A stretch of DNA of 64,000 bases from a virus (taxonomy: Duplodnaviria > Heunggongvirae > Uroviricota > Caudoviricetes), in the IMG/VR virus record IMGVR_UViG_2667527582_000007. One strand, written 5' to 3'. The notes beneath the pieces are model-generated. The model was given only the letters and a program-made list of their open reading frames with translations, did no database searches and was not told the DNA's origin. The first letter of the stretch is position 1; every line of letters begins with the position of its first letter. The position numbers were made by a program, and so were the translations under genes. Below are positions 2,373-48,763 of this stretch, one piece after another.

Positions 2373-2650
2373 TGAACGGAGTCTTCATGCCAGCGGGTAT
2401 CGCTGTAATGGGTCAGCTGGCGATTCTTGTCTCCTGCATAGCTGAACGACGTCACCATCCCCAGTGTGTCCGTAAACTCATAACGGTATTTCACGTTAAT
2501 CCCGTTCAGATCATCACTGCCGGGAACGTTGGTCCGGGCATGAAGATACCCCGCGCTCAGCGTGGACTGATGTTCAGACGCCCATGCAGGCGCACAGGAT
2601 ACGGCCAGACAAATGGCTGCGGACAAAATGGCTGCACAAACTTTACGCAT
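2373..2650 (-). CDS. lom: Lom outer-membrane protein (Ail/OmpX family), C-terminus lost in gap
   Basis: MRKVCAAILSAAICLAVSCAPAWASEHQSTLSAGYLHA... matches lambda Lom signal peptide and N-terminus. Confidence 0.85.
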
Positions 2651-2673
2651 AATTACCTCTCGCTTTTCTGCAA

Positions 2674-2700
2674 TAAAAAAGGCGTCATTTCTGACGCCCG
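2674..2700 (-). terminator. rho-independent terminator between J and lom
   Basis: GC hairpin ggcgtcatttctgacgcc followed by T-run on the minus strand; same element at 43076-43106. Confidence 0.5.
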
Positions 2701-2716
2701 TTCTGGGTTATAAAAT

Positions 2717-3246
<530 letters not shown>

Positions 3247-3256
3247 NNNNNNNNNN

Positions 3257-3949
<693 letters not shown>

Positions 3950-3959
3950 NNNNNNNNNN

Positions 3960-4085
3960 CAACATTTTAGCGGCGGGGCACGCCGTTCTTGCCTGTGGAG
4001 AGATGGTGCAGTCAGGCCGCCCGTTGAAGCAGGAACCCACCGAAATGATTCAGGCGACAGCCTGAACGTAGCAGGGATCCACGTC
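3960..4085 (+). mobile_element. tnpB: IS200/IS605-family tnpB 3' end plus IS right end
   Basis: Near-identical to 47030-47154; encodes ...[34 protein letters not shown] then stop. Confidence 0.6.
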
Positions 4086-34013: not shown

Positions 34014-35140
34014 NNNNNNNNNNNNNNNNNNNNNNNNNNNNNNNNNNNNNNNNNNNNNNNNNNNNNNNNNNNNNNNNNNNNNNNNNNNNNNNNNNNNNNN
34101 NNNNNNNNNNNNNNNNNNNNNNNNNNNNNNNNNNNNNNNNNNNNNNNNNNNNNNNNNNNNNNNNNNNNNNNNNNNNNNNNNNNNNNNNNNNNNNNNNNNN
34201 NNNNNNNNNNNNNNNNNNNNNNNNNNNNNNNNNNNNNNNNNNNNNNNNNNNNNNNNNNNNNNNNNNNNNNNNNNNNNNNNNNCTTTTTTCTCAGCTATCG
34301 TCCTCTTATTTTGCCGTTACATTTCTTTTTGCACTCTAATGATTAATTTACAATAATAATATCGGTAATTATTGAGTAATAATAAATTGATTATTGCAAA
34401 TGTAATTTAATTCCATCTTCGCGTTATATTCCAATCTTTAATCTCCGCATGGAACAAGTTGCATGCGTGACTATATTAAGACAACTTATAACCACCAAAA
34501 CATTTGCTTTGCAAGCAAAAACAGTGACCATTGACTCTAAGAAAATTCCGATCTATTGTTAGGATCATCAAAGTTACTTAACAGTATTCCGAAATGAAAA
34601 TACAAAGCAAGCTAATTGTCTTATTAAACATTATCATTGCATTTATATTATTTGAGCTTTTAGCTCAAAAATTTGGTTTGAGTACATTATTTTAAAGCAA
34701 GATAAACAATATCGGGCACTCTAGTTTTTATAATTAACAATTAAACGTCCATAAAATGTTATTTACTTTTCTTCGCTATTGTCATATCTTAATATTGTGG
34801 CTTACGCCACTCTACTTTCATCACATTTTGTACGTTTATGTACTCGCCATGAAGCTCTTTCATGGCGATTTTTTATTCTTAATCCAAGAACATACTCCCT
34901 ACCTATAGCAAAATCACTTTTTTAACAAAAGAATAACGTATTTAGGTAATCATTACGAATTTACCCTATAGGTGCTACTGGCCATTCAATATCCGGTGCT
35001 ACTGATGTATCAACACTGTTCAGCAACACCCGATATGTCTTCCATGCCGTCAGTAACGATGTCTCTTCCTCCGTTGCGATCTCCAGCTCAGCAACAGTCT
35101 GAACGTACCAGGAACAGCCTCCTTCAGGGCTTGAAGGATA

Positions 35141-35466
35141 TCAATGTTCGCTTCCTGTTAACTGCCGGACAAGTGCAACCAGTTCGCTTACCTGATTTTC
35201 CAGAGTGCTGATCCGGGTGCCTGCTGTTGCCAGATTTTGACGTAGCGTTGTGTTTTCCTCTTCCAGCGCGGTAACGCGATCATCTGTTTCACGGGCGACC
35301 TGAACAAGTAACCCCGTCACGGCGGCGTAGTCAACATTCAGATAACGTGTTTCTTCACGTAATTCATTGCCGTCAACCGTTGGTCCCTGCAACTCTTCAC
35401 CGTAATGAGTAAACGATCCCACAGCTTCTGGTATCGCCTCCATTACTTCCTGTGCAATAACGCCAG
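35141..35466 (-). CDS. tail fiber/tailspike C-terminal intramolecular chaperone-like domain (Peptidase_S74-like)
   Basis: GVIAQEVMEAIPEAVGSFTHYGEEL...ALEEENTTLRQNLATAGTRISTLENQVSELVALVRQLTGSEH; GxIAQEV motif plus coiled coil. Confidence 0.45.
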
Positions 35467-37665: not shown

Positions 37666-37841
37666 ACGCCGCCAGCTTGCGTACAAGCAGCTCTGGCGTG
37701 GTGGTCAGGTGCTTGCTGTTCCGCCAGCGTACACAAGCCAGCGTTGCGTGTGCTGTGGTCATACAGCGAAAGAAAATCGCCTGTCACAAAGTAAATTCAG
37801 ATGCCAGGTATGTGGATATACAGCGAACGCCGATGTAAATG
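37666..37841 (+). mobile_element. tnpB: IS200/IS605-family tnpB fragment (zinc-finger/RuvC-III region)
   Basis: [58 protein letters not shown]. Confidence 0.7.
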
Positions 37842-46553: not shown

Positions 46554-47134
46554 CGCTGGCGAGACTTCAGCGACAGTTAAGCCGCAAGGTCAAATTCAGC
46601 AACAACTGGCAGAAGCAGAAACGCAAAATACAGCGACTGCATTCCTGTATCGCAAATATCCGCAGGGACTACCTTCACAAAGTCACAACGGCCGTCAGCA
46701 AAAACCACGCAATGATAGTCATTGAGGATTTGAAGGTCAGCAACATGTCAAAGTCAGCAGCGGGTACGGTCAGCCAGCCGGGGCGCAATGTCCGGGCAAA
46801 ATCAGGTTTAAACCGTTCGATACTGGATCAGGGCTGGTATGAAATGCGCCGCCAGCTTGCGTACAAGCAGCTCTGGCGTGGCGGTCAGGTGCTTGCTGTT
46901 CCGCCAGCGTATACAAGCCAGCGTTGCGCGTACTGTGGTCATACAGCGAAAGAGAACCGCCTGTCACAAAGTAAATTCAGATGCCAGGTATGTGGATATA
47001 CAGCGAACGCCGATGTAAATGGCGCTCGTAACATTTTAGCGGCGGGGCACGCCGTTCTTGCCTGTGGAGAGATGGTGCAGTCAGGCCGCTCGTTGAAGCA
47101 GGAACCCACCGAAATGATTCAGGCGACAGCCTGA
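46554..47134 (+). mobile_element. tnpB: IS200/IS605-family transposase-associated TnpB, C-terminal half
   Basis: ...KNHAMIVIEDLKVSNMSKSAAG...[80 protein letters not shown]...; RuvC-II/III and Zn-finger motifs. Confidence 0.8.
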
Positions 47135-47154
47135 ACGTAGCAGGGATCCACGTC
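47135..47154 (+). mobile_element. IS right-end sequence after tnpB (truncated by gap)
   Basis: acgtagcagggatccacgtc follows the tnpB stop; same as 4066-4085. Confidence 0.5.
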
Positions 47155-47313
47155 NNNNNNNNNNCCAGATAATAGTGTTGCAAATAAAACAGATTTTTTA
47201 AACATATAAAATACCATCAATGAAGTGATTAAGAAGTTATAGAGTAACAGAGAATTAATAAGATTCTTTTCTCTGAGACGCCAGAATATTTGTTCTGGCG
47301 TCTGATTTTGAGT

Positions 47314-48639
47314 TTATTTGACTAATGAAAATAGATCATTGAGTGATTCGCTCATCGACGGATGAGTAAATATCTGATCGCGTAATATGCTATAAGGCAG
47401 CCCGGCATCCATCACCATTTTCACTATATTGATCATCTCGTGGGAGTCAACACACAGCAGTGATGCCCCTAATATACGTTGGGTTTTATTATCAACAATC
47501 GCTTTTAATACCCCACGGGTATCGTTCATCACTCTGGCGCGCGGAATTGCAGCTACAGGCAATGTCACCACCTGAATATCAGCACCACTCTCTCTGGCTT
47601 GTTCTTCTGTCATACCAACCCTGGACAGGGGCGGTGTCATAAATACGGAATAAGGCACATTTTTCCGATCATCAGTACTACGTTTGCCTTCACCCAGTAA
47701 CTCATCACGTACAATGCGGTAATCATCCAGTGATATGTAAGTAAATTGCAGCCCGCCGGTAACATCTCCCATCGCCCAAATATTGTCTGCGGTGGTATGT
47801 AATCGCTTGTCAACGACAATTGCCCCGCGCTCGTTTACTGCGATACCGGCATTTTCTGGATGTAACGAAGCGGTAGCCGGTTGACGACCGGAAGCTATTA
47901 ACAGTGCATCCACCGCCAGTTGGGCGTGCTCGCTATGCACTTGCACTTGATTTTCATGGTGACTGATTCGCTCCACATGGGCATTGAGGATAATATCGAC
48001 GCCCTGATCGCGTAAAATCGTCGCGATATTATCAGCAATATCCCGATCTTCCCGAGGCAAAAACAGCGAAGCTGACTCTAAAATGGTTACTTTGCTGCCA
48101 AAATTAGCGAACATAGAGGCGAACTCAACGCCAATATATCCGCCGCCCAAAATACCTAAATGCCCAGGCAATTCTTTTAGATTAAGTAATCCGGTGCTGT
48201 CATATACACCAGGTGTGGTGGTAATTCCAGGAATTGGCGGAACCACGGCTTGTGCACCGGTATTAATAAAAATTTTCTCGCCATGAATCTCCAGATTTCC
48301 CTCAGGCCGATGAACACGCAGGCTATGATTATTGATAAACTCCGCCTGGCCGTCGATCACGTCGATATTGGGCATATCCGCAAGATTATGAAAATTCTTA
48401 TTACGTAAAAAATTAACCACTTCATTTTTACGCTGTATGGCACGGACAAAATCTGTGTGCTGCTGTGCGTCATGAACCAATGTTTTGGTTGGGATACAGC
48501 CGATATTAATACAGGTCCCGCCATACATTGCATTTGATTGTTCGATGAGAGCCACACGCCAACCTGCTTTTGCCAGCGTGACGGCTAATGTTTTTCCAGC
48601 CTTGCCAAAACCAATAATAACTGCCTGATATTTATTCAT
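47314..48639 (-). CDS. rclA: reactive-chlorine-stress oxidoreductase RclA (YkgC), pyridine nucleotide-disulfide oxidoreductase
   Basis: MNKYQAVIIGFGKAGKTLAVTLAKAGWRVALIEQSNAMYGGTCINIGCIPTKTLVHDAQQ...; 441 aa. Confidence 0.85.
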   Translation of the reverse strand: MNKYQAVIIGFGKAGKTLAVTLAKAGWRVALIEQSNAMYGGTCINIGCIPTKTLVHDAQQHTDFVRAIQRKNEVVNFLRNKNFHNLADMPNIDVIDGQAEFINNHSLRVHRPEGNLEIHGEKIFINTGAQAVVPPIPGITTTPGVYDSTGLLNLKELPGHLGILGGGYIGVEFASMFANFGSKVTILESASLFLPREDRDIADNIATILRDQGVDIILNAHVERISHHENQVQVHSEHAQLAVDALLIASGRQPATASLHPENAGIAVNERGAIVVDKRLHTTADNIWAMGDVTGGLQFTYISLDDYRIVRDELLGEGKRSTDDRKNVPYSVFMTPPLSRVGMTEEQARESGADIQVVTLPVAAIPRARVMNDTRGVLKAIVDNKTQRILGASLLCVDSHEMINIVKMVMDAGLPYSILRDQIFTHPSMSESLNDLFSLVK

Positions 48640-48693
48640 GATGATTTCCTGTCGAAACGCGTTCATTTGACATTATGACTATAGGACGCAAAA

Positions 48694-48763
48694 GGTGACG
48701 CTGCCAACTTACTGATTTAGTGTATGATGGTGTTTTTGAGGTGCTCCAGTGGCTTCTGTTTCT
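48694..48763 (+). mobile_element. IS1 left terminal inverted repeat and 5' end, 54 nt upstream of rclA start
   Basis: ggtgacgctgccaacttactgatttagtgtatgatggtgtttttgaggtgctccagtggcttctgtttct. Confidence 0.8.

Follow-up and report, generated by a model that had tools for sequence, protein, structure and literature searches.

Contigs of an IS609-type element and a covarying RNA scaffold at the 3′ end of its insQ (tnpB) gene

Three short stretches of tnpB sequence in a 64,000-nt DNA record (positions 1-64000, hereafter the window) are pieces of insQ, the tnpB gene of an Escherichia coli element of the IS200/IS605 family which we take to be IS609. They are very probably short contigs of a fragmented E. 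coli-type draft assembly, in which at least two slightly different IS609-type copies were left unresolved by the assembler. In related genomes, the complete element is a 1,748-bp unit that inserts next to TTAY, ends in TCAA, and harbors a 147-nt RNA scaffold, supported by covariation, that extends from the end of the tnpB coding sequence through the right end. The element is already known, being annotated in almost all E. coli genomes, and its mechanism is understood by homology. As a discovery it carries little weight, IS609/insQ being widely annotated and TnpB guide RNAs well characterized; the useful outcome is a clean description of the unit, its TTAY target (and putative target-adjacent motif, TAM), its TCAA terminus and its scaffold.

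Identity of the element and structure of the window

InsQ, formerly ydcM, is known from the insP/insQ pair of IS609, an IS200/IS605-family element with IS605-type organization, and is annotated in RefSeq as ‘RNA-guided endonuclease InsQ/TnpB family protein’. Of 5426 complete E. coli genomes, 4906 (about 90%) contain insQ sequence that megablast aligns with the longest of the three stretches (piece 1), the best matches reaching 99.7% identity and the median genome having two matching places. The likeness to E. coli IS609 extends over DNA sequence (99.7-100% for pieces 1 and 2), right end, chromosomal site and plasmid-borne variants; nothing of substance differs, except that the window holds only 3′ pieces, the third of which is a 96% variant. 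In the reference locus (L001), which lies between ydcL and ydcO, insQ occupies positions 2373-3581 and a tnpA pseudogene occupies 1859-2365 on the other strand. The occupied ydcL-ydcO junction is present in 3264 of the 5426 genomes (about 60%). E. coli UTI89 provides a natural empty ydcL-ydcO site (L088 390-410), and the insertion is thus polymorphic within the species.

A prior reading of the window from sequence alone (the sequence-only reading) had placed tnpB sequence in three stretches, and its coordinates proved exact and its identification of the element right, at similarity levels well above chance (Table 1). It had also reported that the N-terminal half of the protein and the tnpA partner are missing, which BLASTN and TBLASTN searches of the window confirm at the DNA and protein level: the tnpB N-terminal half, tnpA, the left end and a second tnpB family are all absent from it.

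Table 1. Coordinates of IS609-type features in the window
Feature	Position	Strand	Description
Piece 1	46554..47154	+	One contig; 3′ 601 nt of the IS609-type element; corresponds to L001 3001-3601 (99.7% identity)
insQ/tnpB coding part, piece 1	46556..47134	+	Residues 211-402 and TGA stop
Truncated guide-RNA (omega RNA) scaffold, piece 1	47031..47154	+	First 124 of 147 nt; predicted from covariation, covariance model R1 and folds
RAGATH-18-like core, piece 1	47061..47104	+	CCUGUGGAG...CGUUGAAGCAGGAA; within coding sequence; Rfam RF03064 below gathering score
Right-end part, piece 1	47135..47154	+	The 20 nt after the stop codon, out of 43 nt up to the IS right end
Complete helix, piece 1	47039-47044/47050-47055	+	
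Complete helix, piece 1	47061-47065/47098-47102	+	
Complete helix, piece 1	47069-47071/47089-47091	+	
Complete helix, piece 1	47074-47076/47085-47087	+	
Complete helix, piece 1	47114-47124/47129-47138	+	
Closing helix, piece 1	47031-47036	+	5′ arm only
Terminal hairpin, piece 1	47147-47152	+	5′ arm only
Piece 2	3960..4085	+	Contig; corresponds to L001 3477-3601 (100%; BLAST of the reference locus against the window)
insQ coding part, piece 2	3961-4065	+	Residues 369-402, including stop
Right-end part, piece 2	4066-4085	+	20 nt
Scaffold, piece 2	from 3962	+	
Piece 3	37666..37841	+	Contig internal to tnpB, residues about 308-365; corresponds to L001 3294-3468 (96%)

The window is composed of 97 short pieces (57-3,751 nt) joined by N spacers, 95 of which are exactly 10 N long and one of which is 269 N long (34014-34282). 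It is a concatenation of small, mostly repeat-bounded, unplaced draft-assembly contigs, the boundaries of the pieces being contig ends, and adjacency or truncation anywhere within it is therefore a feature of the assembly rather than of biology. Synteny of the insQ piece with its neighbors could be ruled out: the next piece carries rclA/IS1, not ydcO, and neither ydcL nor ydcO is found in the window. That next piece (47165-48763) is an rclA/IS1 junction with 99.8% identity to E. coli records, which suggests repeats at the ends of many of the window's pieces.

Pieces 1 and 3 differ at 7 of 176 nt and pieces 1 and 2 at 2 of 126 nt, the latter two mismatches being position 4021 (C, versus T at 47090 in piece 1) and the first base of piece 2. 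The pieces overlap with real differences. There is no overlap between pieces 2 and 3, however, and the contigs therefore establish two or more distinct copies, not necessarily three; the earlier count of three fragments or copies is an assembly artefact, produced by overlapping contigs bounded by N. Piece 3 is closest to plasmid-borne variants, on IncI2 plasmids and phage-plasmids (98.3% identity, versus 96% to the chromosomal reference). The T at 47090, in place of C at 4021, exchanges Pro for Ser at InsQ residue 391 and, in a covarying scaffold helix, allows an A-U pair where C leaves an A.C mismatch. The first bases of pieces 2 (3960) and 3 (37666) differ from both piece 1 and the reference while the bases that follow agree, and this odd first base is probably an artefact of the contig end.

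Could the three stretches instead be real, decayed tnpB remnants scattered in the genome? Such remnants exist, as related genomes contain truncated tnpB 3′ ends encoding only the last 40-100 residues (e.g. L068, L073, L078) and the window itself holds a solo right-end relic (see below). Against this, each of the three stretches is one whole piece flanked by N10 on both sides, like all 97 pieces of the window, with no non-IS sequence attached; pieces 1 and 2 break off at one and the same base, in the middle of a hairpin and before the true end of the element; and the reading frame is open throughout. Decay is hence very unlikely, biological truncation of the stretches being ruled out by the N10 spacers at their boundaries, and we retain the interpretation that they are contigs of unresolved IS609-type copies.

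Element ends, target site and transposase

Target and junction tests were carried out on related loci, both junctions being absent from the window. Right ends were compared among seven independent insertions (one chromosomal, six on different plasmids) and about 50 loci from other genera. In all compared insertions, the common sequence ends at ...GGAGGATGTCAA, 43 nt past the stop codon and with TCAA as its terminus, and the 20 nt that follow TCAA differ at every insertion site compared. The length of the element, 1,748 bp, was established from 57 independent insertions and the empty site.

The empty site in UTI89 reads ...GCGCTTTTTAT/TATCGGTTTC..., i.e. TTAT/TATCGG (the slash marks the point of insertion), and the occupied site reads ...TTAT[CCGGTGCGCC...GGATGTCAA]TATCGG..., with the element in brackets. 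As the empty site brackets the insertion exactly, IS609 inserted precisely 3′ of TTAT, without target duplication. TTAY precedes the element at 32 of 34 distinct left junctions (TTAT at 23, TTAC at 4, and the same motif shifted by one base at 5), and positions further upstream vary. The left end forms the hairpin CCCCATCCTTCAGGGCGGGG and the right end the hairpin TCCACG...CGTGGA, with compensatory variants among related loci. The related loci thus display the traits of the IS200/IS605 family: a specific tetranucleotide target, no target-site duplication, no terminal inverted repeats, and subterminal hairpins. The TTAY target and TCAA right terminus of IS609 also fit those of IS608, which are TTAC and TCAA.

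In the window, the 20-mer acgtagcagggatccacgtc directly follows the TGA stop codon in pieces 1 and 2. It lies inside the true IS right end, as the sequence-only reading had proposed for its roughly 20 nt in two fragments, although it amounts to less than half of the 43 nt, and the end itself lies further on. Both pieces stop at the same base within the terminal hairpin, after the TCCACG arm and before the CGTGGA arm, 23 nt short of the true end; the missing nucleotides, cttcagggcgtggaggatgtcaa, include the TCAA cleavage site. No right-end sequence and no part of the RNA scaffold is found in piece 3, which stops 10 nt upstream of the scaffold.

In full copies, a gene for the Y1 HUH transposase TnpA lies divergent from tnpB (insQ); in one full related copy (L003), TnpA scores 143.8 bits against Pfam Y1_Tnp and 146.9 bits against NCBIfam transpos_IS200. 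Full copies and a putative target-adjacent motif, which had been proposed as a means of checking the sequence-only reading, were located in these related genomes, in the form of the 1,748-bp unit and TTAY. Insertions at many plasmid sites demonstrate that the IS609-type family has been mobile. The description of the element as possibly active was nevertheless overstated: the chromosomal copy is found at one fixed locus, with a tnpA pseudogene in the one reference examined, so excision, and hence homing, may no longer occur there.

On IncY and IncI2 plasmids (L002, L004, L005, L006), tnpB-only derivatives from which tnpA is cleanly missing occupy different TTAT sites; their left end, of ~65 nt, lies about 25 nt upstream of tnpB. 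The window also contains, at 35091-35144 on the plus strand, a 55-nt relic that resembles the IS609 right end, with a stop-codon region, a hairpin, and then GGATATCAA. Its hairpin arms are compensatorily changed (AGCC/GGCT), its score against the full scaffold model is a non-significant 4.7 bits, and it is flanked by a 5′-truncated tail-fibre-assembly pseudogene on one side and the stop of a prophage tail-fibre gene on the other. The relic is probably a solo right end that remained after a deletion.

The RNA scaffold and its relatives

The sequence-only reading had expected the 3′ end of tnpB and the IS right end to encode a guide RNA. Covariation, a covariance model and folding bear this out, in that a structured scaffold of 147 nt, with eight helices and 39 pairs (L001 3478-3624), overlaps both, ~104 nt being coding and 43 nt belonging to the right end. 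The helices were curated and then evaluated in alignment A1, which comprises 49 distinct right ends and shows visible covariation within the coding region as well. In this alignment, 96.0% of cells are paired (38.6-51.6% when the partners are slid by 1-3 columns), 18 pairs are changed on both sides (3-6 when slid), and 109 cells are changed on both sides (4-22 when slid); in each case none of 500 shuffles reaches the observed value, a control that does not amount to a probability, as the structure was partly derived from the related sequences tested. Even so, the scaffold structure is convincing despite the kinship of the sequences, given how far the slid partners fall behind and how many independent pair types occur.

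RNAalifold, applied to A1, predicts 39 pairs, 14 of them compensatory. It misses the hairpin spanning the stop codon, which was added by hand and then tested with the slide and shuffle controls. Folded by itself, the E. coli scaffold gives a minimum free energy (MFE) structure in which the closing helix (ACAUUU/GGAUGU), the CCUGU/GCAGG stem and three hairpins (GCGGC, stop-codon-spanning and terminal) reappear; z is -2.69, and all 200 shuffled sequences fold less well. A structured right-end RNA is accordingly present.

When the window was scanned with covariance model R1, piece 1 scored 135 bits and piece 2 126 bits, with the 3′ arms failing across the N spacer; no further scaffold in the window was significant, the next best score being 9.4 bits. 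The scaffold in the window has no guide and only the first (5′) arm of the closing helix and of the terminal hairpin, and its fold can form neither the closing nor the terminal helix. As the scaffold is 3′-truncated, no guide can be read in the window. At the chromosomal site, the sequence that would act as guide, TATCGGTTTCTGTCAG..., agrees in full with the empty site flanked by TTAT.

The pairing might in principle reflect only coding constraint and a DNA hairpin used by TnpA, with no functional guide RNA produced from IS609-type elements. About 104 nt of the scaffold are indeed coding, with much of the variation at synonymous sites; every Rfam match falls below its gathering score; and the terminal hairpin and TCAA are reportedly the recognition and cleavage elements of TnpA in IS608-type elements. 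The terminal hairpin is also the TnpA-bound DNA hairpin, and its covariation cannot separate RNA from DNA function. Yet four helices lie wholly in the coding region and a fifth spans the stop codon, and these undergo coordinated two-sided changes (e.g. GAG/CUC, GGG/CCC, GGA/UCC; AUG/CGU, GCG/CGC, GUG/CAC) of which coding constraint predicts none, a signal that is lost once partners are shifted by 1-3 columns. Furthermore, the scaffold region aligns to curated RNA families from tnpB 3′ ends, the close homologs from ISDra2 and ISFba1 have been solved in complex with such RNAs, and RNA-seq of E. coli K-12 has revealed sense-overlapping transcripts at tnpB 3′ ends (PMC4615843). A purely coding and DNA-level origin of the pairing thus has little chance of being correct, and we favor a guide-RNA scaffold. 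A consensus scan for sigma-70-like promoters on the sense strand within tnpB found none, which fits processing from mRNA but is no evidence for it.

Three Rfam families resemble the scaffold. Against RAGATH-18 (RF03064; gathering score 44.9), the window scores 29.5 bits (E = 0.0017), L001 25.4 bits and L063 30.9 bits; HgcC (RF00062; gathering score 50) yields 22-32 bits in seven loci; and sot0042 (RF02656; gathering score 88) yields 19.3 bits. Membership in any of these families was rejected, all scores being below the gathering thresholds, and the resemblance is taken as support for homology of the scaffolds. Within the RAGATH-18-like core, pairs 161/205 and 162/204 covary.

RAGATH-18 is the guide-RNA core of ISFba1 TnpB and has been described as IS607-specific and independent of coding sequence (Ren et al. 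2024, PMC11061315). The IS609-type RNA resembles the RAGATH-18-derived reRNA of ISFba1 (PDB 8IAZ) in its core, CCUGUGGAG...CGUUGAAGCAGGAA, and two nested stems, which fit the RAGATH-18 consensus, and the two proteins are homologous over their full length. The distal part, in contrast, measures 17 nt in IS609 instead of 44 nt; the IS609 core lies inside the coding sequence, of which the reRNA is described as independent; and IS609 is partnered with a Y1-type transposase, whereas RAGATH-18 has been reported only with IS607 (PMC11061315). The archaeal HgcC and sotRNAs, which are RNAs from the 3′ ends of IS1341-type tnpB genes (Gomes-Filho et al. 2015, PMC4615843), share with IS609 a sense overlap with the tnpB 3′ end and a nearly identical terminal hairpin, which has a loop of the UUCA/UUUA type and precedes GGAGGAnGUCA, but differ in the 5′ part of the scaffold.

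The presence of a RAGATH-18-like core inside the IS609-type tnpB coding sequence, together with a 3′ hairpin and terminus that match archaeal HgcC and sotRNAs, leads to a reading in which all of these belong together. We would give even chances that RAGATH-18, HgcC, the sotRNAs and IS605-type omega RNAs are parts of one ancient scaffold, and that the ‘IS607-only’ link is an artefact of intergenic searching. At one and the same tnpB-3′-end RNA (L001 3508-3634, and also in L011, L021, L038, L041, L050 and L063), all three Rfam families match below threshold, suggesting that what Rfam lists as unrelated entries is a single TnpB guide-RNA scaffold.

The InsQ protein and its predicted mechanism

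The reading frame of piece 1 is open throughout, and its product retains the RuvC-II Glu267 (IEDL), the RuvC-III Asp363 (NADVN) and the zinc-finger cysteines (Cys334/337/353/356). The Glu and Asp align to chain positions 278 and 361 in solved TnpB structures. The RuvC-I motif, GLDAGV, which lies outside the window, is found in the full reference InsQ at the GxDxG position of those structures. The product of piece 3 includes the RuvC-III Asp and a zinc finger in which an AY>VC change alters the first motif from CAYC to CVCC, and piece 2 encodes only the last 34 InsQ residues, all after RuvC-III. The claim that all fragments encode RuvC-II/III and the zinc finger thus holds for piece 1, fails in part for piece 3, which is limited to the zinc finger and RuvC-III Asp, and fails for piece 2, which has neither.

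Assignment to the C-terminal half of an IS200/IS605-family TnpB, in contrast, is upheld by matches to Pfam OrfB_IS605 and Cas12f1-like_TNB, both passed by the product of piece 1, to NCBIfam guided_TnpB, and to ISDra2 TnpB. The full reference InsQ (402 aa) scores 382.2 bits against guided_TnpB (cut-off 100), exceeds the cut-offs of Pfam HTH_OrfB_IS605, OrfB_IS605 and Cas12f1-like_TNB, and is homologous over its full length to the TnpB proteins of ISDra2 (8BF8/8EXA/8H1J; E = 1e-54) and ISFba1 (8IAZ; E = 2e-43). The full-length insQ copies in other genomes are intact, at 402 aa, and free of the frameshifts and stop codons that would have spoken against the sequence-only reading. Judged by these motifs and homologies, InsQ is a RuvC/zinc-finger TnpB nuclease, whose activity and TAM recognition are expected by analogy with its characterized relatives.

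Domestication of InsQ into a nuclease-dead, TldR-like RNA-guided transcription factor would be compatible with a chromosomal copy fixed at ydcL-ydcO in about 60% of E. coli and with the tnpA pseudogene in the reference examined, and such a fate is documented for TnpB (PMC10705468). It is rejected, as the least probable alternative of all, on account of the catalytic residues and transposon ends: in the window, neither the RuvC-II Glu nor the RuvC-III Asp nor the zinc finger has been lost, the reference has GLDAGV at the RuvC-I position, and intact ends, TTAY insertions at many sites and plasmids, and full copies with an intact Y1 TnpA mark a mobile element.

For InsQ as a TnpB nuclease, the homologs suggest the following mechanism. 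The scaffold, formed by the last ~104 nt of the tnpB coding sequence and the 43-nt right end, would extend 3′ into the flanking DNA, which would supply the guide, and InsQ may trim its own transcript into this guide RNA; transcription and processing would be expected in the source strain as well. The InsQ-RNA complex would then cut TTAY-flanked, guide-matched DNA, i.e. the empty site left by excision, and recombination after cleavage of the vacated site could restore the element. TnpB makes omega RNA by processing its own mRNA (PMC10278001), and one report assigns a homing-endonuclease role to IS605-family TnpB (PMC10690162). The literature searched yielded neither cleavage experiments that define a TAM for IS609 TnpB nor a dedicated study of ydcM/InsQ/IS609 function; the sole functional mention is a trans-cleavage screen in which IS609 TnpB was purified among nine candidates, another ortholog was the most active, and the result for IS609 is not described (PMC12781874).

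The ISDra2 TnpB-omega RNA complex shares with IS609 the catalytic Glu and Asp, the zinc finger, a scaffold that runs from the end of tnpB into the right end, and a guide drawn from flanking DNA. With ISDra2 and IS608, IS609 also has in common a target tetranucleotide 5′ of the left end, which would double as TAM. The TAM of ISDra2 is TTGAT; in IS609, unlike ISDra2, the putative TAM is TTAY and tnpA is divergent from tnpB.
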